From assembly GCA_963734535.1 (NCBI GenBank), contig CAVTHS010000007.1, positions 209,936-273,935 on the forward strand: 64,000 nt of DNA. Reading direction: 5' to 3'. Below are positions 32,165 to 57,172 of this stretch, one piece after another. The stretch comes from an uncultured Chloroflexia bacterium (lineage in GTDB: Bacteria; Chloroflexota; Limnocylindria; Limnocylindrales; CSP1-4). Within the stretch, counting starts at the first letter, position 1; each line of letters opens with the position of its first letter. A program made the position numbers and the translations under genes. Under the pieces are notes generated by a model that saw only the letters and a program-made list of their open reading frames with translations, was not told the DNA's origin and ran no database searches.

Positions 32165-32508
32165 CGTGTGCTGCCTCCAGGCCGTCCATCGGTACGTGCG
32201 GTCGGCGGCTGCCGGGCATCGTGCCGGGCGCTGGCGCCGTCCCGCCCGGCCCACCAGTCGGGCCAGGTCCGATCGCGTTCGATGTCCACGACACTAGGGT
32301 TCGAGGAGGCGGCCGGCCAGCCGGGCACCCGGCATCTTCTGGGTGGGGCTAGCCCCCCGGTGCGCCAGCCGAGACGGACCGCGCGGTCGGCTCCGGGCCA
32401 CGGTGACGTCCCCGTCCGCCTCGTGACGAGTCGTCATGTCCGCGCCGCCATCCGGAGGGACGCTAACGCCGAACGTGGTGATGAATGGATACGAGGAGGA
32501 CACGCCAC

Positions 32509-33345
32509 ATGTCAACCGTCCGCACCGGTGCTGGTGCGATCGCCGCTGCCACGCCCATCCCGGCGCAGCGAGCCCGCTCCCTGCGTCGCTGGAACCGCTT
32601 CCTGGCCCTGGCTCACGGAGCGCAGTTCGTGCTGATGCTCCTGGTCTCGCGGACGACGGCGCTGTTCGAGCCCGTCGTGCCGACGGTTCGGCCACTCCTG
32701 ACGGATGGGAAGTTCACCGGACTCGAGCCTTCCAGCGTTCTCCTGGTCTCGTTCCCGCTGGCCTACCTCATCGCGAGCTTCCTGCTGATGAGCGCGGTTG
32801 CCCACGCCACGGCCGGCTGGGTCCTGCGAGGCCGCTACGAGGCCTGGCTGGCGCGGGGGATGAACCCACTGCGGTGGGTGGAGTACGCGTTCTCGTCGAC
32901 CGTGATGATCGTCGCCATCGCGTACCTCAGCTTCATCACCGACTTCCCCGCGCTCGTCGCAATTGCCGGCTGCAACGTCGCGATGATCCTGTTCGGGTGG
33001 AGCATGGAAGCGGCCAACGAGGGCCGCGAGCGGATCGACTGGAAGCACTTCGTCTTCGGCTGCATCGCCGGCGGCGTGCCGTGGATCGCGATCTTCTCCG
33101 TGCTGTGGGCATACTCGGCCCAGGCGGACCTGCCGGCCAAGGCGCAGATCCCGGGCTTCGTCTACGTGATCATCGCGAGCCTGTTCGTCGCCTTCAACAT
33201 CTTCGCCATCACGATGGTCCTCCAGTACCGGAAGACCGGCCGCTGGCGCGACTACCTCGTGGGAGAGAAGACGTACATGGTGCTGAGCCTGGTCGCGAAG
33301 TCGCTGCTTGCCTGGCAGGTCTGGTCCGGCACGCTCCGCCCGTAA
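32509..33345 (+). CDS. heR: Heliorhodopsin
   Basis: LRRWN...HGAQ, NPLRWVEYAFSSTVMI, GEKTYMVLSLVAKSLLAWQ with retinal-binding Lys; seven TM helices; GAGGAGG RBS. Confidence 0.95.
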   Translation: MSTVRTGAGAIAAATPIPAQRARSLRRWNRFLALAHGAQFVLMLLVSRTTALFEPVVPTVRPLLTDGKFTGLEPSSVLLVSFPLAYLIASFLLMSAVAHATAGWVLRGRYEAWLARGMNPLRWVEYAFSSTVMIVAIAYLSFITDFPALVAIAGCNVAMILFGWSMEAANEGRERIDWKHFVFGCIAGGVPWIAIFSVLWAYSAQADLPAKAQIPGFVYVIIASLFVAFNIFAITMVLQYRKTGRWRDYLVGEKTYMVLSLVAKSLLAWQVWSGTLRP

Positions 33346-38493: not shown

Positions 38494-39465
38494 TCACGAG
38501 ATGTCGACCAGCACCTTCCCGGTGACGCGGCCTTCGACCGCTTCGTGCGCGGCGACGATCTCGTGCAGTGGGAAGTGGAGCTCGGGCAGCGGCACCAGGG
38601 CGCCGGCCTCCAGAGCCCGTGTGATGTCGGTCACGGCATCCATGATCTTCGACGGAGCGAGGTTGTAGACGAGGACGAACCGGAGCGTCGCATTGTTGAC
38701 CATCAGGCCCCGGACGGGCAGCGTCGGATCGGCCGCGTCGCTCGCGTACGCGACGATCACCCCGTCCCGCGCGAGCACCTGGAGGTCGGTCGCGAGGTTG
38801 GTGCCGATCGCCACGTCGACGACACGATCGACGCCAGCCGGGGCAGCCGAGCGAACGCTGGCCACGTGGTCGGGGGCGTGATAGTCGAAGACCAGCCGGG
38901 CTCCGGCGGCGAGTGCAAGGCGGCCCTTGTCCGCCGAGCTGACCGTCGCGAGCACCTCCGCGCCACCCCACGCCGCGAGCTGGATCGCGGCATTCCCCAC
39001 CGCGCCCGCGCCCCCGGTCACCAGGACGGAGCGACCGGTCACGGGTCCGTCGGCAAAGACGCAGCGATGGGCGGTGATGAAGGGAATGCCGAGTCCCGCA
39101 CCCTGCGCATAGGAGATGCCGGGGGGCAGGGGAACCGCCTGGTCGGCCGGCACGCAGGTGTACTCGGCCGCCGTGCCATTGGGTCGCCCGGCGGCCGCGT
39201 GATAGACCCACACCCGCTCGCCGGCTCGCGACGGGTCGACGCCCGCCCCGACCAGGTCGATGTCACCGGACCCGTCCTGGTTGGGGATCTGCCCGAATGT
39301 CGGTAGCTCGGGTCCTGCCGAGCGAACTTTCCAATCGGTCGGGTTCACTCCCGACACGCGGAGGCGGACACGCACCTCCCCGGGTCTCGGCATCGGGTCG
39401 GGCACGTCGATGATCTCCAGCACGCGCCGGGCCGGGCCCCGCTCGTGGTAGACGGCAGCTTGCAT
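38494..39465 (-). CDS. NADPH:quinone reductase (zeta-crystallin MDR family)
   Basis: GVNPTDWK, LGIPFITAH, VTGGAGAVG, GKVLV. Confidence 0.9.
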   Translation of the reverse strand: MQAAVYHERGPARRVLEIIDVPDPMPRPGEVRVRLRVSGVNPTDWKVRSAGPELPTFGQIPNQDGSGDIDLVGAGVDPSRAGERVWVYHAAAGRPNGTAAEYTCVPADQAVPLPPGISYAQGAGLGIPFITAHRCVFADGPVTGRSVLVTGGAGAVGNAAIQLAAWGGAEVLATVSSADKGRLALAAGARLVFDYHAPDHVASVRSAAPAGVDRVVDVAIGTNLATDLQVLARDGVIVAYASDAADPTLPVRGLMVNNATLRFVLVYNLAPSKIMDAVTDITRALEAGALVPLPELHFPLHEIVAAHEAVEGRVTGKVLVDIS

Positions 39466-39506
39466 CTCAGCCTCGCAGTCAATGCCCGGGTCGAGGGCGG
39501 TGGGAC

Positions 39507-40742
39507 TCAGGCGCCCGGGGCCGGGTCTGCCGATCGGGCGTCCGTCGGCTCGCGTGCGTCCGCTGACGATGCCGCGGCCGCTGCAGCGGCTCCGTGAACC
39601 CTGGCCAGGGGAACCCCAGTCTCCGCGGCCAGCGCGCGCACGGATTCGAACTCCGGCATCGCCCCGACGACACGGCCCCCCATGATCTTCTGCTTGACCA
39701 CGACCGGACCGTATGGCGTGGTCACCTCGACGAAGGCCCGGTCGGCTTCGTGACGGCGCACGGCGTGGACCCGGACCCCGAGGGTTGTTGTCTCGGCAAG
39801 GAGGATCCCGGCCAGCCGCGTCTCGTCCTCCATGCGAGCGACCACGGAGACCTGGACTCCTGCCCGGCCCTTCTTCATCTGGATCGGCGTCACCGTGACG
39901 TCGAGAGCCCCGGCGGCAAGAAGAGCCTCGCCGACCGGGGCCAGGAGCTGCGGGTTCATGTCGTCGATGTTGGTCTCGATCACGACATGGTCCCCCATGG
40001 GCGCCTCGTGCGCCGCCTCGCGTCCGCCGGCCGGGCGACCGACCCACAGGCGGAGCACGTTCGGCCAATCGAAGTCAGCATCGCCCGCGCCGTATCCCAC
40101 CCGGTCGACGATCATCGCCGGCTGGCCGACTCGGCCCAGCGTCGCGAGGATCGCCGCGCCGGTCGGGGTGACCAGCTCGCGACCGTCCCCGAAGTTGCGC
40201 GTCGGGATTCCCGCCTCGGCAAGGATCGCGAGCGTCGCGGGAGCGGGGGCGGGGAGCCGATGTCCGGACGAGGTGATCGAGCCGGTCGAGACCGGCACGG
40301 ACGAGACATGCAGCTCGTCGATACCCAGCAGCGAGAGCCCGAGCGCGGTGCCGACGATATCGACGATGGAGTCGATCGCACCGACCTCGTGAAGCTCCAC
40401 CGCGTCGGGCGGTGCGCCGTGGATGCGGCCCTCGGCAACGGCGAGTCGCTCGAGAACCGCGAGTGCCCGGTCGCGGACGATCGCGGCGAGCCCCGCCTCG
40501 GCGACGATGGAACGCACTTCGCGGAAGGGACGGTGATGCCGGCCCGGGTCGGCGATCACGTGGACCTTCGTTGCCCGGATCCCGGCCCGCTGGACCTCCT
40601 CGGACTCGAGCCGGAACTCGTCCCCCACCGACAACCCCGCGAGCTCGTCGCGCAGCGTCGCGAGCGGCACGCCCGCGTCGATGATCGCGCCCAGGAGCAT
40701 GTCCCCGCTGACGCCGGAATAGCAGTCGACGAAGCCGATCAC
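39507..40742 (-). CDS. larC: Nickel-pincer cofactor nickel insertase LarC (single ORF)
   Basis: DCYSGVSGDMLLGA, LHEVGAIDSIVDIVG, ELVTPTGAA, ETNIDDMNP, MKKGR, ETTTLGVR, PEFE. Confidence 0.95.
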   Translation of the reverse strand: MIGFVDCYSGVSGDMLLGAIIDAGVPLATLRDELAGLSVGDEFRLESEEVQRAGIRATKVHVIADPGRHHRPFREVRSIVAEAGLAAIVRDRALAVLERLAVAEGRIHGAPPDAVELHEVGAIDSIVDIVGTALGLSLLGIDELHVSSVPVSTGSITSSGHRLPAPAPATLAILAEAGIPTRNFGDGRELVTPTGAAILATLGRVGQPAMIVDRVGYGAGDADFDWPNVLRLWVGRPAGGREAAHEAPMGDHVVIETNIDDMNPQLLAPVGEALLAAGALDVTVTPIQMKKGRAGVQVSVVARMEDETRLAGILLAETTTLGVRVHAVRRHEADRAFVEVTTPYGPVVVKQKIMGGRVVGAMPEFESVRALAAETGVPLARVHGAAAAAAASSADAREPTDARSADPAPGA

Positions 40743-41560
40743 CTGCCGGCGACCGCGGACAGCCCCGTATCGCGGGCCGGGACGCAGTCCGGCGCGACCT
40801 CCGGGGTCGAGCCAAGCCGATTGACCAGGGCTGCCGCGAAGCCCGCCCCGAATCCGTTGTCGATGTTCACCACCGTGATGCCCGCGGCGCAGCTGGTGAG
40901 CATGGTCAGGAGGGCGGACAGGCCGCCGAAGGCGGCACCGTAGCCAACCGACGTTGGCACGGCGATCACCGGCACGTCCACGAGGCCACCCACAACACTC
41001 GGAAGGGCGCCGTCCATTCCCGCAACGACGACGATGACGCGCGCCCGGCGAAGGGCATCGAGCCGGTCGAGGAGTCGATGGATCCCGGCAACGCCGACGT
41101 CGTAGACGCGCTCGACCGAGTTGCCCATGACCGTCGCCGTCACCGCAGCCTCTTCCGCGACGGGGATGTCCGCCGTGCCTGCCGTCAGGACCAGGATCCC
41201 GGGTCGCCCGGGACCGGCATCCGGATCTGGCACCAGGATCGTCCGTGCGAGCCGGTTGTACTCGGCCGACGGCACGCGCTCGTGCACCGCCTCGTACACG
41301 GCGGGCGTGGCGCGCGTGGTCAGCACCGGACCCCCGTGGGCGACGAGACGCTCGACGATCGCCACCACCTGGTCGGTCGCCTTCCCCTCGGCCAGGACAA
41401 CCTCGGGCATTCCCTGTCGAACGCCCCGATGGTGGTCGAGGCGGGCGAATCCGCCAACTTCCTCGTAGGGCAGGTCGCTGAGGCGGTTGACTGCCATGCC
41501 CACGTCGACATCACCGTCTCGAACGCGCTCGAGCAGCGAAGCCAGGTGAGACCTATCCAT
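40739..41560 (-). CDS. larB: Nickel-pincer cofactor carboxylase/hydrolase LarB
   Basis: LDHHR...PEVV..EGK, AGTADIPVAEEA, DVGVAGIHRL, AGMDGALPSVVGG, PTSVGYG, VNIDNGFGA. Confidence 0.95.
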   Translation of the reverse strand: MDRSHLASLLERVRDGDVDVGMAVNRLSDLPYEEVGGFARLDHHRGVRQGMPEVVLAEGKATDQVVAIVERLVAHGGPVLTTRATPAVYEAVHERVPSAEYNRLARTILVPDPDAGPGRPGILVLTAGTADIPVAEEAAVTATVMGNSVERVYDVGVAGIHRLLDRLDALRRARVIVVVAGMDGALPSVVGGLVDVPVIAVPTSVGYGAAFGGLSALLTMLTSCAAGITVVNIDNGFGAGFAAALVNRLGSTPEVAPDCVPARDTGLSAVAGR

Positions 41561-42440
41561 CTCCGCCTCCCGTTCCCACGGCAGCCCGGCCCAGGTCGAA
41601 GCTGCCCGAACGATAGCCGTCGAGGTCGAACGTGACGTGGGCGTAGCCGGCTGCGCGGACCCCGGCCGACACTCGCGTCCGAAGGTCGGGTTCGAGGAGC
41701 CGTGGCAGGTCCCCGACGGGGACCTCGATTCGAGCGATCGCGCCGTGGTCGCGCACGCGCACCACCCCGAACCCCGCGTCGCGCAGGATGGCCTCGGCGG
41801 CACCGATCCGGCGCATCCGCTCGCGGGTCACGGGCTCGCCATAGGGGATCCGGGTGGCAAGGCACGGCGCCGAGGGCCGTTCGGAGTTCGGCAGCCCGAG
41901 GTCGCGGGCCAATGCCCGGACCTCGGCCTTCGTCACTCCCGCACGGGCAAGCGGCGCGATGGCGCCCGCCTCCTCCGCGGCCCGCGCACCCGGTCGATTG
42001 GCGGTTCCGTCATCTGCGTTCTCGCCGTGAAGGATCGCTTCCAGGCCCTCGGCGTCGGCGATCTTCCGAAGCGCCGCGAGGACGACGCCCTTGCAGTGGT
42101 AGCAGCGGTCGGGCGGGTTCTCGACGAACGCGGGCAGGACAAGCACGTCGATGGGCACGAGCCGGTGACGGATCCCGATCGCTGCGGCGACCGCCTGCGC
42201 CTCGCGAATCTCCTCGTCGGGCAGGAGCCCCGACACGATGGTGCAGGCAAGGGCGCGATCGCCAAGCGCCTCGTATGCCAGCGCGGCGACAACCGAGCTG
42301 TCGACGCCTCCCGAGAAGGCGACGACGGCGCCGCGGAGCCCGGCCATGACCGCCCTGACGGCGGCCGCCCTGGGGAACGCCGGGACGCCCGGGGCGGCCG
42401 GCTCGCCGGGGAGCCTCCGCGGCGTCGTCGCGAGGGTCAT
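41553..42440 (-). CDS. larE: ATP-dependent sulfur transferase LarE
   Basis: PP-loop AFSGGVDSS, NPPDRCYHCK, RPG, PSAPCLATRIPYG, RVRDHG, GYRSGS. Confidence 0.95.
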   Translation of the reverse strand: MTLATTPRRLPGEPAAPGVPAFPRAAAVRAVMAGLRGAVVAFSGGVDSSVVAALAYEALGDRALACTIVSGLLPDEEIREAQAVAAAIGIRHRLVPIDVLVLPAFVENPPDRCYHCKGVVLAALRKIADAEGLEAILHGENADDGTANRPGARAAEEAGAIAPLARAGVTKAEVRALARDLGLPNSERPSAPCLATRIPYGEPVTRERMRRIGAAEAILRDAGFGVVRVRDHGAIARIEVPVGDLPRLLEPDLRTRVSAGVRAAGYAHVTFDLDGYRSGSFDLGRAAVGTGGGDG

Positions 42441-43210
42441 CGGAGCAGGTATCCGCCGTCCACGAGGAGAGCGGCACCGGTGATGTAGGACGCGTCGGGA
42501 GACACGAGGAACGAGACGGCGGCGGCAACGTCCTCGGGCGTGGCGACCCGCCCGAGCGGGATCAGGGGAAGCGTCAGCTCCGCAACCGCGGGGTCGGCCA
42601 GGAGGTCACGAGTCATGCCCGTCTCGACGACGCCCGGCGCCACTGCATTCACGGTGATGGCGTGTTCCGCGAGCTCGACGGCCATCGCCTTCGTGAGCAT
42701 CCGGAGTGCCCCCTTCGAGGAACAGTAGTGCGACTGATACTCGATCGCGACCTCGCTCGTGATGGAGCTCATGTTCACGATCGAGCCCGGGATCTTTGCC
42801 TTGACCATGCGTCGCGCGGCAGCCTGGCCGCACAGGAAGGCGCCCTTGGCATTGACCGCCATGGTCCGGTCCCACTCCGCCTCGGTCAGGTGGAGGAAGG
42901 GCTTGTAGCCCATGATCCCGGCGTTGTTGACGAGGATGTCGACGCGCCCGAAGCGCGCCCACGCCGCGTCGAATGCGTCCTGGACCGCCACGGCGTTCGC
43001 GACGTCCACGACCACGGCGAGCGCTGCTGCCCCACTCCCGTCGAGCAGGGCAGCAGTCTCGTTCGCCATCTCCGACACGACATCCGCCACGACGACGGCG
43101 GCGCCGTCCGCGGCGAGGCGCACGCAGACCGCGCGCCCGATGCCCGAGCCACCCCCGGTGACGAAGGCGACTCGCCCGGCCAGCCGGCCGGGAGTGCCGG
43201 AGACAGTCAT
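42437..43210 (-). CDS. Classical SDR family oxidoreductase
   Basis: TGGGSGIG, NNAG, YCSSK, NAVAPG, YITGAALLVDGG. Confidence 0.93.
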   Translation of the reverse strand: MTVSGTPGRLAGRVAFVTGGGSGIGRAVCVRLAADGAAVVVADVVSEMANETAALLDGSGAAALAVVVDVANAVAVQDAFDAAWARFGRVDILVNNAGIMGYKPFLHLTEAEWDRTMAVNAKGAFLCGQAAARRMVKAKIPGSIVNMSSITSEVAIEYQSHYCSSKGALRMLTKAMAVELAEHAITVNAVAPGVVETGMTRDLLADPAVAELTLPLIPLGRVATPEDVAAAVSFLVSPDASYITGAALLVDGGYLLR

Positions 43211-43212
43211 CT

Positions 43213-43452
43213 CTACGTTCCTCCGACGATGATCTTGACCCGCCCGAGGGTCGCACCTGCCTCGGCCGACCCCCCGGCGGGAACGTCGATCGCCGCGAGC
43301 ACGCCGCTGCCGGGAGCCCGGAGGACGTCCTCGGCATCATCGACCCGGTACCGGAGCACCGGCTCCAGGCGAGCGACGAAATCTCCTTCGTCCTTCAGCC
43401 ACTCGACGACCGTGACCGCCTTGCCCGGCACTCCGATCCGGATCTCTGCCAT
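43213..43452 (-). CDS. Stand-alone lipoyl/biotinyl-like domain lacking the attachment lysine
   Basis: VTVVEWLKDEGDFV...PVLRYRVDDAEDVLRAPGSGVL...GATLG; DKA position reads DDA. Confidence 0.75.
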   Translation of the reverse strand: MAEIRIGVPGKAVTVVEWLKDEGDFVARLEPVLRYRVDDAEDVLRAPGSGVLAAIDVPAGGSAEAGATLGRVKIIVGGT

Positions 43453-43461
43453 TGGTCGACC

Positions 43462-44814
43462 TCAGACGTGGGCGAGGAGACCAGCCTCGGTGCCGAGGTC
43501 GATCAGGTCCGAGTTGATCTGGGCGAACACGTACACCGGTGCGCAACCCGGCCGCTCGATGACCTGGCGCGCAATCGTCAGGGCTTCGCGGATCTTCGGA
43601 GCGCTCGGGAAGTACTCCCAGCAGTCGCCGACAAGGAAGACGACCTTGTCGCGGCAGCTCTCGGGATCGAGGTCCGGCTGGCCGCCCGTGATGAAGACGA
43701 CCTCGCCGAGCTTGTCCTTGAACTCGTTGATGTCGAAGCCGCTGTGCAGCCCGAAGTTGTCGATCGCACCGCGGATGTTGATGTAGCAACCTGGGCAGGA
43801 CTGCTGGGTGAGCACTTCCAGGCCGGGCCAGACCCCGACAGGGTTGCCGTTGGCCCGCAGGAAGTGCCGCATGACGTCGTCGATCTTCTCCCCGACCACG
43901 TCGATCTTGTCGAGGTGGAACTCCCCGAGCCCGTCGTGGCCGGCGATCCGGACGGCCGGGATCTCCAGCGGGTCGAAGCCCATGCAGGCCCCGGTGACCG
44001 CGTCGACCGCGACGGTGTCCGTCCCGGCCAGGATGAGGTTCATCTCGATCGGAGAGCCGGCGTGCGGCCCCTGGCCCTCCATGCCGATCACCGCGTCGAC
44101 GATGACGAGGTCGGCGTGCCGCACGCGATACTCATCGACAACCTTCGCGTCGATGTCGTTGCGATGCTGGCCCTGCTGGTTGGTGTGGAGGCCCTTGCCG
44201 TCCTTACCATCGTCGGATGGATGTTCGTTGCGCAGGATCCCCTGCCAGTTCGCGAGCCCGAGGGTCACGGTCTTGGCGAGGTGGACCTTCATCTTTGGAA
44301 CGTTGATGACGACGTCGGCGTCGAGGAAGGGCTTCCAAACGTCCGCCTCGTGGAGGTAGCGGGCGCCCGGAATCTTCACGTGGACCGTCTCGGTCTCGTC
44401 GAAGTAGATGATCCGGTCCGCCCCACCCCGCTCGGCAGCGTCCTGCAGGCCGCTCTGGGCGAAGGCCGGCCGGGCCTTTCCGACGTGGAAGCCGAGGGAC
44501 GGGTTGTCGCCGACGGCGACCTCGCCGGCCTTGGACTCCTCCTTCAGGTACGCGACGATCGCCTCGAGGGTCCGGGGATCGACGACCGCAAAGCTCGTGG
44601 CCGGCGCCTGGAACGCGAGGTTCGGCTTGACCAGGACCTTCGCGCCAGGCTTGATGATCTCGTCGATGTTGCCGACGGCGAGCTCAACAGCGGCCTTGAC
44701 GGCCTTCTTGATCGCGGCCACGTCCTCGTCATAGCGGACGTACTCGCCCGCCATGAACTGGGCGTTGCCCTTCATCTCTCCGGTTTTTGCGATGGAAACG
44801 CGTGCGTTCGACAC
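43462..44814 (-). CDS. DUF362 domain protein with C-terminal 4-Cys Fe-S-type domain
   Basis: KVLVKPNL, ADVVINVPKMKVH, IVDAVIGMEGQGP, DTVAVDAV; CPGC...GDC...PGCAP; AGGAG RBS before GTG. Confidence 0.88.
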   Translation of the reverse strand: MSNARVSIAKTGEMKGNAQFMAGEYVRYDEDVAAIKKAVKAAVELAVGNIDEIIKPGAKVLVKPNLAFQAPATSFAVVDPRTLEAIVAYLKEESKAGEVAVGDNPSLGFHVGKARPAFAQSGLQDAAERGGADRIIYFDETETVHVKIPGARYLHEADVWKPFLDADVVINVPKMKVHLAKTVTLGLANWQGILRNEHPSDDGKDGKGLHTNQQGQHRNDIDAKVVDEYRVRHADLVIVDAVIGMEGQGPHAGSPIEMNLILAGTDTVAVDAVTGACMGFDPLEIPAVRIAGHDGLGEFHLDKIDVVGEKIDDVMRHFLRANGNPVGVWPGLEVLTQQSCPGCYINIRGAIDNFGLHSGFDINEFKDKLGEVVFITGGQPDLDPESCRDKVVFLVGDCWEYFPSAPKIREALTIARQVIERPGCAPVYVFAQINSDLIDLGTEAGLLAHV

Positions 44815-44897
44815 CAGAAACAGCTCCTGTGATGAGGCAGCCGGTCCTGGCTGGACGCCAGGACGACGACGATCGGTCAGATGGCGGCCGGTTCGGG

Positions 44898-45047
44898 CGC
44901 GGAGGGAGGGGCCGCAGCCGCGGCCTTTGCCACAGGCGCCTCTTCGGAGCGGGTCACGTGGCGGCCGGTCAGCGGATCTCCGTCGCAGCGACCAGCCACG
45001 CGTGCAACCCGGCCGGGTGTGTCAGTCGGTCGACACCTCCCTCCGCG
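44898..45047 (-). promoter_or_regulatory. Candidate multi-stem RNA leader closed by a perfect 12-bp inverted repeat
   Basis: CGCGGAGGGAGG (44898-44909) and CCTCCCTCCGCG (45036-45047) enclose further hairpins. Confidence 0.45.
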
Positions 45048-45148
45048 TACTCGCGGGACGGGGTTGGATGGGGTCGCACCAGGCAGCCGACGGCCGGATC
45101 CTCTCCCTCGAGACGAGGCTACGGCACCGGGCGTCGCGACCCCAATCC

Positions 45149-45168
45149 GATTTCAGATAGTGGGAATC
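45149..45168. promoter_or_regulatory. Possible IclR operator upstream of the DUF362-lar operon
   Basis: AT-rich imperfect palindrome GATTTCAGATAGTGGGAATC. Confidence 0.35.
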
Positions 45169-45220
45169 ACGGGCGCCGGGCATCGCCGGTGGGTCCGGGC
45201 GCGCGCCCCTGCGGGCCTGC

Positions 45221-46069
45221 TCAGGCCTGGGCGAGGAGCGCCCCGGCACGCCTGGCCGCGACGACGACGTGGGCGACGAGGCGCTGCGGCTCGAAGCGGA
45301 GGCGCTCGGGCTCGATACCGATCGCGATCGCTGCCCTCGGACGATCCGGCGGCGTGGCGATCGGCGCCGCAATACAGGAGAGGCCGGTCTCACCCTCTTC
45401 GACGTCGAAGGCATAGCCTCGCCGTCGGGCGACCTCGAGTTGGTCGAGAAAGCGGTGGCCCTCGGTGATGGTGCGCTCGGTCAGCGGCTCGAACGCCCAG
45501 TTCCGGATGGTGCCGAGCGCGGCGGCGGGCGGCAGAACCGCGACCAGGACCTTGCCCAGGGACATCGTGTGGACGGGTCCGCGCGCGCCGGCGCGAATAT
45601 GGTCGCCGTGCGCCGAGCCCGGCACGGCCGCGGCGCTCGTGACGATCACCTGGTTCCCGATCAGGCGCCCAATCACGGCGACGTCGCCGCAGGCGCGGGC
45701 GAGATCCTCGAGGATCGGTTGGAGCTCCGGGAACGGGTTCGGGCGGTGCTCGAGATGGGTGAGAAGCCCGGCGAGACGGTCGCCCAGGATGAGCCCGCCA
45801 TCGTGCATGCGCCACACGTACCCCTCGTGCACGAGCGTGCTCACGAGGTGGTAGGCCGTCGCCGCGGGCAGTCCGAGCCTCCGAGCGACCTCCTTCGTCG
45901 GCAGGCCCTCCTCGGCGGCGATCACCTCGAGCGCACGGAGGCCGCGCTGGACGGTGGACAGGACGCTGCCGGACGCCGTCAGCGAGCCAGTCGCCGACTC
46001 GGCGGGGCGGCGGAATGGTCCAGTTTCACGCGGGCCGTGGTGGGTGGTCGTCACGTCGCGAACCCTCAC
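45221..46069 (-). CDS. IclR family transcriptional regulator
   Basis: TVQRGLRALEVI...LGLPAATAYHLVSTL; HTMSLGKVL; GYAFDVEE...SCIAAPI. Confidence 0.92.
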   Translation of the reverse strand: MRVRDVTTTHHGPRETGPFRRPAESATGSLTASGSVLSTVQRGLRALEVIAAEEGLPTKEVARRLGLPAATAYHLVSTLVHEGYVWRMHDGGLILGDRLAGLLTHLEHRPNPFPELQPILEDLARACGDVAVIGRLIGNQVIVTSAAAVPGSAHGDHIRAGARGPVHTMSLGKVLVAVLPPAAALGTIRNWAFEPLTERTITEGHRFLDQLEVARRRGYAFDVEEGETGLSCIAAPIATPPDRPRAAIAIGIEPERLRFEPQRLVAHVVVAARRAGALLAQA

Positions 46070-47781: not shown

Positions 47782-48945
47782 TCAGGCGCCGGCGCTGGCC
47801 GCGCCGACCGGGGCCAGCGGTCGAGACGGCTCCTGCCAGTGGCGGAGGCTACCGCGCGCGAGTGCCTGCTCGAAGTACGACCCGTCGGGCCGGATGCCGT
47901 CCAGGCCGCAGGCCGAGACCAGGCGCTCGAGGAGCGGCGCCAGCTGGGATCCGTAGACGTGCATGCACGGCTCGGGCCGGACGCCGGGCCACGAGTAGCA
48001 GGAGACCACGGTCCGCCGCTCGCTCGTCGGGACGCCCGGCGGCAGCGCATCCCAGGCGGGATCGCCCGGCGCGAACTCCCACTGGTCCAGGTTGCCCTGC
48101 GGGATGCCCTCGATGCCGCGCACGATGGGCGGCACGTTGTCGAGGAGGTACGGGTCCACGGCGAGGTCGCAGATGACGGCGTGCCCGGGCAGGACGCCGA
48201 TCCAGGCGTTCGGCACCACCGGCACGGACGGGTCGCGGCGCGCCGTGGCGTCGACGAGGACGTCCGTGACGGCCAGCCGGCCCTTGAGGTAGCCGGCGTC
48301 GCCGGTCAGATTGCGACCGACGGTGACCACCTCCACGCCCGGCAGCCCGGCCCGGCCGAAGGCGTCGTTGCGGGCATCGTCGCCGTACTTCGTCGCGAAC
48401 TCCACCGCGTGCCGGCCCACCCGCCCGGCGCCCAGGATCGTGACCTTGACCGTGGATCGGTGCGGGTTCAGCAGCGTGGGCCACGTCCGCTCCAGCGCCG
48501 CGAACGCCGAGGCGACGCCGTTCCACGCGACGCTGCGCAGGTTCTCCACCAGCCGCCGACCGTCCTCGTTCCTGATGAGGTCGAGGCTCAGCGCGTCGAT
48601 GCCGAGCTCACGCAGCATCGCCACGCGCGCCGGCCGGGTGGAGAAGTGGAGCATCGACACGAGCACGGCGCCCCGCCGGAGCAGCTCATACCGCCCCTCC
48701 GGCGCCCGCAGCACCACGACGACGTCCTGCCGGTAGCAGTGCTCCTCGTCCGTGATGTGCACGTGGGGCGAGACCGTGCTGTAGTCCGTGTCGCTGTAGC
48801 CCATCCCGGAGCCGGTCCCGGTCTCGACGTAGACCTCCGCGCCGTTCGATGCAAGCAGCCCGATCAGCGGCGGCAGGAAGTCGCGCCGCTCGCTGGCCTC
48901 CCGGTGCATCCGCGGGAACCCGACCGTGATGTGTCCGGCAAGCAT
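47782..48945 (-). CDS. Alanine dehydrogenase/PNT-superfamily protein, paralog 1
   Basis: GFPRMHREASERRDFLP, VETGTGSGMG, SMLHF, ILGAGRVG, CDLAVDPY, SCYSWPG. Confidence 0.8.
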   Translation of the reverse strand: MLAGHITVGFPRMHREASERRDFLPPLIGLLASNGAEVYVETGTGSGMGYSDTDYSTVSPHVHITDEEHCYRQDVVVVLRAPEGRYELLRRGAVLVSMLHFSTRPARVAMLRELGIDALSLDLIRNEDGRRLVENLRSVAWNGVASAFAALERTWPTLLNPHRSTVKVTILGAGRVGRHAVEFATKYGDDARNDAFGRAGLPGVEVVTVGRNLTGDAGYLKGRLAVTDVLVDATARRDPSVPVVPNAWIGVLPGHAVICDLAVDPYLLDNVPPIVRGIEGIPQGNLDQWEFAPGDPAWDALPPGVPTSERRTVVSCYSWPGVRPEPCMHVYGSQLAPLLERLVSACGLDGIRPDGSYFEQALARGSLRHWQEPSRPLAPVGAASAGA

Positions 48946-49261
48946 CCGAATCCTCCCGCCCGACGAGGGCGACTCAACGCCGTCCTGGTGAGGATTGGGG
49001 CGGTCGCCACGAAGCCTCGGACCGCGGCCGGGCGCGAGCAACTGCTGGCGAGCACGACCGGGCGGTCCACTTGGCCCCAACGAACGGCGACACGAGGACC
49101 TCGCCGGCGTCCGCAGCGCCGGGCTGAGAGGCGGACGGCACACCGGGTAGCGGTCCTTCGGGCCTTGACGAACCCGAGGCGGCAGCCGACTGTCGGTCCG
49201 TCGCCGCGTCGACGACCTCGCGGGCGCGAGGTTCCCAGGAACCGGATCCCAGAGGCAGGAC

Positions 49262-50398
49262 ATGTCCAGCGACCGCGGGCTCACGATCGGCTTCCCCCGC
49301 ATGTACAACGAGCCCGGCGAGCGGCGAGCCTTCCTGCCGCCCCTCATGGGTCTGCTGGCGAGCATGGACGTCGACGTCCACGTCGAGGCAGGGAGCGGGG
49401 CCGGCATGGGCATCTCCGATGACGACTACCTGGCCGCGTCGCCGCGCGTGCGCATCGTCGACGAAGCCACGGCATACCGCCAGGACATCGTGGTGGTGCT
49501 GCGGGCGCCCGAAGGCCGCTACGAGATGCTGCGACCCGGCGCGATCCTGCTCTCGATGCTCCACTTCACCACCCGGCCGGAACGCGTCGAGATGCTGCGC
49601 CGCCTGGGCATCGAAGCCGTCGCGATCGACATGGTCACCGGCGACGACGGACGTCGCCTGGTCCAGAACCTGCGGGACGTCGCCCGCAACGGGCTGGCCG
49701 CGGCCTTCGACGCGCTCGAGCGGCGCTGGCCACCGCTGCTCTCGCCCATGCGCCCGCCGATCAGCGTCACGATCCTTGGCGCCGGCGGCGTCGGCAAGCA
49801 CGCCATCGAGTGGGCCGCCAAGTGCGGCGACGAGGCGCGCAACGACCGATTCGTCCGCGACGGCCTGGCCGGGGTCGAGGTGGTGGTGGTCGAGCAGAAC
49901 CTGTCGGGCGACGAGGCCTACTTCCGGCGGCGCCTGGCCCAGACTGACATCCTCGTCGATGCCACCGCGCGACGCGACACGTCGCGTCCCCTCTTCCCCA
50001 ATGCCTGGCTTGGCATGTTGCCGGCCCACGCGATCGTCTGCGACCTGGCGGTCGATCCGTACCTGCTCGACGACGACCCGCCAGTCGTTCGCGGGATCGA
50101 AGGCATCCCCCAGGGCAACCTGGACCAGTGGGAGTTCGGCCCCCAGGACCCGGCCTGGGACCGCCTGCCGCCGGGGATCCCGACCGCACAGCGACGAACC
50201 GTCGTCTCCTGCTACTCGTGGCCGGGCGTCCAGCCCGAGGCCTGCATGCAGGCCTACGGCGCGCAGGTGACACCGCTCCTCAAGACGCTCATCTGGTACG
50301 GAGGGCTGCCGGCGATCGGACCGAACGGCTCATTCCACGGGCGGGCACTCTGGCGCGGCAGCCTGCGTCACTGGCTGGGCGAGGACCCGATCGCCTGA
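49262..50398 (+). CDS. Alanine dehydrogenase/PNT-superfamily protein, paralog 2
   Basis: GFPRMYNEPGERRAFLP, VEAGSGAGMG, SMLHF, ILGAGGVG, CDLAVDPY, SCYSWPG. Confidence 0.8.
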   Translation: MSSDRGLTIGFPRMYNEPGERRAFLPPLMGLLASMDVDVHVEAGSGAGMGISDDDYLAASPRVRIVDEATAYRQDIVVVLRAPEGRYEMLRPGAILLSMLHFTTRPERVEMLRRLGIEAVAIDMVTGDDGRRLVQNLRDVARNGLAAAFDALERRWPPLLSPMRPPISVTILGAGGVGKHAIEWAAKCGDEARNDRFVRDGLAGVEVVVVEQNLSGDEAYFRRRLAQTDILVDATARRDTSRPLFPNAWLGMLPAHAIVCDLAVDPYLLDDDPPVVRGIEGIPQGNLDQWEFGPQDPAWDRLPPGIPTAQRRTVVSCYSWPGVQPEACMQAYGAQVTPLLKTLIWYGGLPAIGPNGSFHGRALWRGSLRHWLGEDPIA

Positions 50399-57096: not shown

Positions 57097-57172
57097 TGGA
57101 GCGGGAGACGGGATTCGAACCCGCGACATTCTGCTTGGGAAGCAGACACTCTGCCAGCTGAGTTACTCCCGC
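57097..57172 (-). tRNA. tRNA-Gly (anticodon CCC), CCA encoded
   Basis: GCGGGAGTAACTCAGCTGGCAGAGTGTCTGCTTCCCAAGCAGAATGTCGCGGGTTCGAATCCCGTCTCCCGCTCCA; 76-nt cloverleaf. Confidence 0.97.

Follow-up and report, generated by a model that had tools for sequence, protein, structure and literature searches.

The 64,000-nucleotide stretch of DNA analysed here, referred to throughout as the window, comes from an uncultured Chloroflexia bacterium (NCBI GenBank assembly GCA_963734535.1, contig CAVTHS010000007.1, positions 209,936 to 273,935 of the forward strand) and carries a gene for a DUF362 protein which, judged from its homology, predicted fold and gene neighbourhood, is a candidate user of the nickel-pincer nucleotide (NPN) and a putative two-domain member of the LarA superfamily. 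The DUF362 subfamily to which this protein belongs, and perhaps DUF362 at large, emerges as a strong candidate for a nickel-pincer enzyme family. At the position equivalent to Lys184 of LarA, the residue that tethers the cofactor as a thioamide, the window protein has an alanine, with lysines gained nearby; we somewhat favour the view that the protein is an NPN-using enzyme of the LarA superfamily in which the lysine anchor has been relocated rather than lost. The gene and the residues in question are as follows.

43462..44814, minus strand: DUF362 gene (450 aa, GTG start; Pfam PF04015, E = 4.8e-46)
44160..44295, minus strand: motif segment, residues 174-218, aligned with the LarA segment bearing His174, Lys184 and His200
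44281..44283, minus strand: His178 codon CAC, the counterpart of LarA catalytic His174 (hhalign)
44272..44274, minus strand: Lys181 codon AAG, candidate relocated anchor, Lys in 14/14 Ala188 proteins
44251..44253, minus strand: Ala188 codon GCG, in the column of LarA Lys184, which forms the thioamide tether (hhalign)
44182..44211, minus strand: insert DGKDGKGLHT, residues 202-211 (ten residues), found in the Ala188 clade only
44164..44166, minus strand: His217 codon CAT, equivalent to His200, the nickel ligand of LarA (hhalign)
43543..43797, minus strand: four-cysteine stretch of the C-terminal domain, with near-invariant Cys340, Cys343, Cys398 and Cys424

Translation of the minus strand at 44160-44295 gives KMKVHLAKTVTLGLANWQGILRNEHPSDDGKDGKGLHTNQQGQHR, residues 174-218 of the 450-residue open reading frame (ORF), in which the motif reads KMKVH178-LAK181TVTLGL-A188-NWQG...GQH217R. 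Both the motif letters and the alanine at GCG 44251-44253, as given in a preliminary description of this DNA, are thereby confirmed. The Pfam DUF362 model matches residues 60-274 at 157.8 bits against a cut-off of 24, placing the protein within this family. The frame at 43462-44814 (minus strand) is taken as coding because of its codon-position GC content (0.68/0.38/0.90), and the long ORF antisense to it is the usual artefact of high-GC DNA. The best NCBIfam match, the ‘Npun_F2552 family’, scores 92.8 bits, far short of the 500 required; the name points to a cyanobacterial family resembling DUF362, and our literature search found Npun_F2552 mentioned in no paper. Cyanobacteria are described as makers of NPN that lack LarA (PMC11796402). 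A search for longer, fused forms of the DUF362 protein found none, which counts as weak evidence, and a protein atlas search gave no usable match.

The catalytic pair of LarA is formed by His108 and His174 (PMC12611868), with Lys184, Arg75 and His200 binding the cofactor (PMC11770544). L. plantarum LarA was taken from an annotated plasmid record and joined by 11 diverse LarA homologs from other plasmids, ten annotated and one unannotated; none of the 17 sequences in the resulting LarA set departs from His108, His174, Lys184 or His200. The DUF362 side was represented by 128 proteins, namely three members of the window protein's subfamily and 125 representatives at 50% identity, these being the ones of 340-520 aa among 149 listed relatives. 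Profile-profile alignment of the two sets by hhalign returns a probability of 83.6% and an E-value of 8.2e-6 over 339 columns spanning both domains, pairing Asp167, His178, Ala188, Gly192 and His217 of the DUF362 protein with Asp163, His174, Lys184, Gly189 and His200 of LarA, respectively. The His-x9-Lys/Ala arrangement and the histidine that follows are thus in register, with the equivalents of His174 and His200 present and alanine in the column of the tether lysine, and the earlier proposal that this segment mirrors the LarA cofactor segment is supported. A hmmsearch with the 128-sequence DUF362 profile reproduces the same register on LarA. The Pfam DUF362 model itself scores 23.2 bits on L. 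plantarum LarA, against its cut-off of 24, and 25.7-26.1 bits on three other LarAs, above that cut-off. DUF362 and the LarA N-terminal family are placed in one Pfam clan, CL0471, and DUF362 has served as the outgroup of a LarA tree (both PMC11770544).

Significance in the profile-profile comparison was reached only after the 11 diverse LarA homologs were added. With shallow profiles (the subfamily against 14 near-identical LarAs) hhalign gave an E-value of 0.35, and its global mode also failed; once the DUF362 profile was diverse but that of LarA still shallow, the correct segment ranked first, though weakly (E = 0.047). A PDB sequence search with the protein alone gave 0 matches, and a PDB search with the subfamily profile gave no LarA and two chance matches (E = 0.33 and 1.2).

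The fold comparison leads to LarA as well. The model of the window protein has a predicted local distance difference test score (pLDDT) of 81.7, and of its 12 Foldseek matches at E ≤ 1e-3, 11 are named lactate/malate racemases or LarA-like enzymes, the twelfth being 4nar, an uncharacterised T. maritima protein. The model of an Acetobacterium ortholog with lysine at position 188, built from a deeper alignment, is of higher confidence (pLDDT 94.1, predicted TM-score 0.93) and has 19 matches at E ≤ 1e-3, with the 14 listed comprising 13 LarA-family structures and 4nar. LarA structures are thus the best, and nearly the sole, significant matches, among them 7s91 (E = 2.3e-7) and 9eid (E = 4.5e-7), with 450-500 aligned columns covering the two-domain fold. 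The relation between DUF362 and LarA that the two models suggest is one of superfamily level. In the Acetobacterium model, a strand at 174-178 ends at His178, followed by a short strand at 182-184 and by a short helix at 188-193 that begins at position 188.

The residues that align with His174, Lys184 and His200 of LarA are conserved within DUF362. Position 188 is a lysine in 126 of the 128 aligned proteins, with alanine found only in the window protein and one clade-mate, so that Ala188 is a genuine rare exception; His178 is conserved in 109 and His217 in 127 of these proteins, along with Lys176 (127), Asn189 (122) and Gly192 (126). The K-T-H...L-K-N consensus given earlier for DUF362 accordingly holds. 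Cysteine occupies positions 340, 343, 398 and 424 in 123-125 of the 128 proteins, and these four residues probably form a metal or iron-sulfur site; the LarA sequences in the alignment lack them. Conservation reaches 90% or more at 24 positions of this set, and the window protein matches 22 of them, departing only by Thr78-to-Val and Lys188-to-Ala. The subfamily is a tight one, with identities of 55% or more over eight or more phyla, and the next DUF362 relatives fall to 43% (313 bits against 642 for the subfamily). It differs from generic DUF362 in its specific histidines, His110 and His198, and the Ala188 clade differs further in K188A, G181K and the insert. All of the later histidines previously pointed out in RNEH, GLHT and GQHR are present, but they are not equivalent: His198 (in NEHP) is invariant in this subfamily only, and His210 (in GLHT) sits in the insert confined to the Ala188 clade. 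As candidate nickel ligands His198 and His210 were rejected, and the ligand is most probably His217, since this is the sole histidine of the three that is conserved family-wide and aligned with LarA His200.

Scanning the GTDB species genomes yielded 245 loci, and the best 80 of them (numbered with an L where one must be told apart) were used in the analyses that follow. Thirteen of these 80 loci, all in Chloroflexota-labelled metagenome-assembled genomes (MAGs), have Lys181, Ala188 and the insert, with the remaining 67 having Gly181 and Lys188 and no insert. Compared over their whole length, the 14 Ala188 rows and 67 Lys188 rows are fixed differently at only 11 positions, namely 181, 188, seven insert positions, 221 and 421, and nine of the 11 fall within the segment aligned to the LarA cofactor site. 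Position 181 is lysine in 14/14 Ala188 proteins and glycine in 67/67 Lys188 proteins, and the insert residues Gly203 and Asp205-Gly206-Lys207-Gly208-Leu209-His210 are invariant in 14/14. The change K188A is thus accompanied by G181K and by the Lys207-bearing insert in every Ala188 protein (14/14) and in no Lys188 protein (0/67). In a tree that omits the partial row L076, the Ala188 proteins, 80-95% identical, form one clade nested among the Lys188 proteins, with a Shimodaira-Hasegawa-like approximate likelihood ratio (SH-aLRT) support of 99, and of 97 after removal of columns 176-222, from which it follows that the replacement of lysine by alanine was one event. That one lysine is lost and two are gained, always together, points to a relocated anchor rather than an abandoned one, and on these sequences a lysine anchor moved to position 181 and/or 207 appears at least as likely as the loss of the anchor.

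The preliminary description had instead envisaged a LarA-like pocket holding NPN purely non-covalently, with Lys181 and Lys207 then having no anchoring role. Such a pocket would agree with the alanine in the Lys184-equivalent column, and it has a precedent in the LarA of T. thermosaccharolyticum, an NPN enzyme without a cofactor tether that loses its non-covalently bound cofactor on purification (PMC11796402). That enzyme, however, is a true LarA and retains its lysine, as do its relatives in our LarA set of 17, whereas the window protein combines an alanine with new lysines close by; the presence or absence of the lysine therefore does not by itself predict covalency. Furthermore, K188A never occurs without G181K and the Lys207 insert, which has the look of a compensated change. 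We consider a purely non-covalent pocket rather unlikely.

The genes for NPN synthesis stand in the same operon as the DUF362 gene. This operon and its immediate surroundings are made up as follows.

45221..46069, minus strand: IclR-family regulator, upstream of the DUF362 gene; also found beside 6/13 Ala188 loci
43213..43452, minus strand: lipoyl/biotinyl-type domain protein, 79 aa (Pfam Biotin_lipoyl, 31.9 bits against a cut-off of 22.1)
42437..43210, minus strand: classical short-chain dehydrogenase/reductase (SDR), 257 aa (adh_short_C2, E = 4.7e-67)
41553..42440, minus strand: LarE, sulfur-transfer step of NPN synthesis (NCBIfam TIGR00268, 276.7 bits against a cut-off of 150)
40739..41803 (ORF as listed), minus strand: LarB (NCBIfam NF033503, 293.1 bits against a cut-off of 175, residues 122-329)
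39507..40742, minus strand: LarC, nickel-insertion step (Pfam Ni_insertion, E = 2.7e-124)
38494..39480, minus strand: Zn-type alcohol dehydrogenase/quinone oxidoreductase (ADH_zinc_N and ADH_N), directly downstream of LarC

The genes from DUF362 through the 79-residue protein, SDR, LarE and LarB to LarC run in this order on the minus strand and are closely packed, with gaps of 9 nt between DUF362 and the 79-residue protein and 2 nt between the latter and SDR, and overlaps of 4 nt between SDR and LarE and between LarB and LarC. LarC also exceeds the NCBIfam equivalog cut-offs for LarC1 (173.8 against 90) and LarC2 (135.8 against 50). The listed LarB ORF overlaps larE by ~250 nt, and the true LarB start probably lies well downstream of the listed one. 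In one pairwise alignment, LarE has a CxxC pair, Cys113/Cys116, together with Cys193; we infer from this three-cysteine pattern a LarE of the cluster-dependent type, a type mentioned in PMC11796402, not one with the single sacrificial cysteine of L. plantarum LarE. The Zn-type dehydrogenase possibly belongs to the operon, and a gene for a TauE-family membrane protein also lies downstream on the same strand. No Lar_N or LarA was found among the ~50 window ORFs scanned, nor any LarA among 71 representative ORFs (380-520 aa) of 143 clusters from the flanks of related loci, a scan that left out the high-GC Chloroflexota loci, with the window ORFs scanned separately. Rfam gave no riboswitch ahead of the operon, and scanning for promoters and terminators yielded no more than is expected of shuffled sequence.

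Linkage to lar genes was scored by tblastn with window and Acetobacterium queries (E ≤ 1e-4, coverage at least 40%) in the fetched flanks, and shows the DUF362 gene to be genomically associated with larB, larC and larE. Lar genes are found beside 38 of the 80 loci, which come from at least eight phyla, and beside 30 of the 47 with at least 10 kb of downstream sequence. For the Ala188 loci the figures are 9/13 overall and 6/6 with at least 10 kb downstream, and for the Lys188 loci 29/67 and 24/41. With Lys188 loci also lar-linked, this linkage is a trait of the whole subfamily and not of the Ala form, and the suggestion that the lysine-to-alanine change tracks lar adjacency fails; a statistical association between the two cannot be established from a change that arose once, in one clade. 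Nor does the change define a lar-linked subfamily, as had also been proposed, with a Lys-bearing DUF362 found near lar genes in Streptomyces as well. On the linear plasmid NZ_CP109481.1 of Streptomyces sp. NBC_01450, a DUF362 protein of 418 aa (27% identity; Pfam E = 1e-33) that keeps the first histidine, the lysine at +10 and the later histidine is encoded ~4 kb from larE-larB-larC (L094:5275-13380), which is a second, independent lar linkage. The neighbours of this Streptomyces gene encode a cyclase, DAHP synthase, a chorismate-binding enzyme and non-ribosomal peptide synthetases, and the locus has the appearance of a secondary-metabolite cluster in which NPN may be put to use.

Several observations weigh against assigning the window protein to the LarA superfamily as an NPN enzyme. 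The Pfam models Lar_N (PF09861) and LarA_C (PF21113) do not match it even at E = 10, and two functional residues of LarA are unmatched at their aligned columns, in addition to the tether lysine. The column of Arg75, which binds phosphate in LarA, holds Phe68, in a loop shared with the invariant Lys63 and Asn65; the column of His108 holds Ser106, with the subfamily-invariant His110 four positions further on, where the profile is in an insert state. The hhalign probability does not exceed 95%, the TM-scores of the Foldseek matches are low (0.31-0.39), and residues 180-220 of the window model, which include the motif region, have a pLDDT of only 45-64. Additionally, lar genes are missing from the neighbourhood of 17 of the 41 Lys188 loci with full flanks. 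Of the 43 Lys188 loci with 8 kb or more of downstream sequence, 10 lack all the usual partners, and the six of these that were annotated have unrelated neighbours, such as aconitase/isocitrate dehydrogenase or UPF0261. Finally, the lar genes might act for a LarA or some other enzyme whose gene lies beyond the window.

Some of these points would fit a DUF362 protein that does not use NPN at all, the lar genes serving instead the SDR, the Zn-type dehydrogenase, or an enzyme of LarA or aldo-keto reductase (AKR) type elsewhere, and DUF362 holding some other cofactor, for example a metal or iron-sulfur cluster on its four cysteines. Besides the unmatched Arg75 and His108 columns and the 17/41 loci lacking lar genes, such a division of labour could call on the near-invariance of those cysteines and on the existence of DUF362 proteins fused to 4Fe-4S ferredoxin domains, as well as on the ability of NAD(P)-type folds to evolve NPN binding, as in the AKR-type NphT found through its LarC neighbourhood (PMC13524815). 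We nevertheless regard it as improbable. Across DUF362, His178, Lys188 and His217 are retained at the columns that hold the His/Lys/His of LarA, and two branches sharing just 27% identity both show linkage of DUF362 to lar genes. The SDR sequence contains TGGGSGIG, NNAG and YxxxK and so retains TGxxxGxG, NNAG and YxxxK, which we take to be the canonical motifs of an NAD(P)-dependent SDR. On a plasmid of Paenibacillus cellulositrophicus (L083:4320-9441), moreover, a true though divergent LarA homolog occupies the position of DUF362 and is followed by SDR, LarE, LarB and LarC, with the SDR after the enzyme gene as in the window.

Two of the loci just mentioned have further features. The Paenibacillus operon is preceded by a glucuronate isomerase gene, and its LarA homolog matches Lar_N at E = 1.7e-8 and the DUF362 model at E = 1.4e-4, with a motif region that looks intermediate between LarA and DUF362. 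An example of the ferredoxin fusion is found in a Christensenellales MAG at L062:8499-9656 (plus strand), where a second, different DUF362 paralog carries a fused 4Fe-4S dicluster ferredoxin domain, its gene being immediately upstream of that for the subfamily member.

The partners of the DUF362 gene were counted as ORF clusters over the 80 loci and the window. A small lipoyl domain is present in 58, and an SDR and a LipB-type octanoyl/lipoyl transferase (184.9 bits, cut-off 155) in 56 each, with LarC in 38, LarB in 30, LarE in 15, a sigma-54 activator in 26, a fusion of fatty-acyl-AMP ligase and acyl carrier protein (ACP) in 21, and FabF in 12. That the SDR is simply FabG was considered, given FabF beside the SDR in 12 loci. 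In the loci of Acetobacterium type (L042:13399-16989 and 20 others), the LipB-like transferase, the ligase-acyl-carrier fusion and the sigma-54 activator are placed between DUF362 and larB-larC, a set with the look of a dedicated route by which the small lipoyl domain is loaded with acyl groups. Among the annotated ORFs there is no LipA-type gene for sulfur insertion.

The 79-residue protein of the window belongs to this lipoyl family and lacks the modifiable lysine at the tip of its hairpin: for this column the window and the seven clade-mates that have sequence there (L001, L002 and L004-L008) show D, G or T, with the lipoyl lysine (T-x-K-I) present in the other 50 of the 58 small domains. 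In the same eight members the domain also lacks a 5-residue loop, and a LipB gene is absent. The domain is still conserved, being 73-95% identical within this window clade, and may therefore survive as a structural subunit. Of the deeper Ala188 loci, L009-L011 and L076 retain LipB, and L009, L010 and L076 retain the lipoyl lysine, so that K188A is older than the decay of the carrier.

A gene for an aquaglyceroporin-type MIP protein lies directly upstream of DUF362 in 12/12 testable Ala188 loci and beside DUF362 in four Lys188 loci (confirmed by Pfam on three), and the L. plantarum lar operon likewise contains a MIP gene. The window itself is missing this gene, with a 407-bp gap (44815-45220) against 1215 bp in its 95%-identical relative (L001:8797-10010). 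Other loci have sigma-54 activators similar to DhaR/PrdR, or a sugar-type ABC transporter with a Zn-type alcohol dehydrogenase. These neighbours, like the MIP gene, suggest a small neutral hydroxy compound as the class of substrate.

That K188A disables cofactor binding and the Ala188 clade has kept a pseudo-enzyme or repurposed protein of a decaying system would suit the parallel losses in the window clade (lipoyl lysine, 5-residue loop, LipB gene) and the loss from the window of the MIP gene kept by L001, but it is highly improbable, since the 22/24 family-conserved positions kept by the window protein, the clade's 80-95% identity with Lys181 and the insert residues invariant in 14/14, and the full larE-larB-larC set kept in the operon above curated cut-offs indicate purifying selection on a working site.

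In the relocated-anchor reading, the DUF362 protein would bind NPN made by LarE, LarB and LarC of the same operon, with His217 supplying the fourth nickel ligand and His178 acting as acid/base over the cofactor, both roles by homology with LarA. The part that Lys184 plays in LarA, that of holding the cofactor, would fall to Lys188 in nearly every DUF362 protein. In the one Chloroflexota clade a single event is proposed to have replaced Lys188 by alanine and to have brought a lysine at 181 and the insert with Lys207 and His210, the anchor moving within a remodelled pocket where it may form a thioamide or a mere salt bridge. The chemistry would be one of hydride transfer, with a small neutral hydroxy compound either oxidised or epimerised by way of a carbonyl intermediate. 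The enzyme would work with the adjacent NAD(P)-type SDR and, in most relatives, also with a LipB-modified lipoyl-domain protein, a partner that in the window clade would have decayed to a lysine-less subunit.

A wider proposal, which we offer tentatively, is that DUF362 at large represents a second, previously unrecognised branch of nickel-pincer enzymes, in which a LarA-like His/Lys/His set holds NPN, the four-cysteine C-terminal domain probably carries an iron-sulfur site, the subfamily has a dedicated LipB-loaded lipoyl-domain partner, and the Chloroflexota clade represents a migrated covalent anchor (Lys188 lost, Lys181 and/or Lys207 gained).

Elsewhere in the window, a heliorhodopsin gene is found at 32485-33345 (plus strand; Pfam PF18761, E = 5.8e-81). 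Divergent paralogs with an alanine-dehydrogenase/PNT N-terminal domain, visibly similar to each other and with overlapping listed 5' ends, lie at 47782-49413 (minus strand) and 49262-50398 (plus strand), and a tRNA gene at 57100-57172 (minus strand) is the sole Rfam match in the window.

Outside LarA, reported NPN users so far number two: a hydride transferase of AKR type and an ornithine cyclodeaminase (PMC13524815). The former, the nickel-pincer hydride transferase NphT, resembles the present case in that a tether lysine and a histidine ligand serve as its diagnostic residues (PMC13524815), and differs from it in having a TIM-barrel fold unrelated to LarA and DUF362. The NphT study set LarA relatives aside (PMC13524815), and neither DUF362 nor PF04015 appears in its main text or in 12 of its 20 supplementary files. 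In a literature search with subscription journals outside its scope, DUF362 combined with LarA or nickel-pincer terms returned only the outgroup use in the accessible text of PMC11770544; DUF362 alone returned, besides that paper, one clan-clustering paper only, and nickel-pincer combined with lipoyl terms returned nothing. The partners of DUF362, namely the lipoyl-domain protein, LipB and the acyl-AMP-ligase/ACP fusion, are not described for LarA in the literature examined.

Approximately 15% of analysed genomes have larB, larC and larE without larA, and the NPN users of organisms without LarA are an acknowledged open question (PMC11796402). DUF362 offers a concrete, clonable third candidate family of NPN users with thousands of members (6663 relatives at E ≤ 1e-3 in a HMMER search of 1.84 billion representatives), and the locus described here provides both diagnostic residues and natural partner genes. 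The single-origin swap of K188A, G181K and a Lys/His-bearing insert constitutes a natural experiment on the re-anchoring of a covalently tethered organometallic cofactor, and, should the lipoyl partnership prove functional, NPN chemistry would extend past racemisation and free hydride shuttling. If DUF362 at large is indeed a branch of nickel-pincer enzymes, it would explain part of the ~15% of genomes that make NPN without LarA, and could link the hydride chemistry of NPN with one-electron carriers or a swinging arm instead of simple racemisation.

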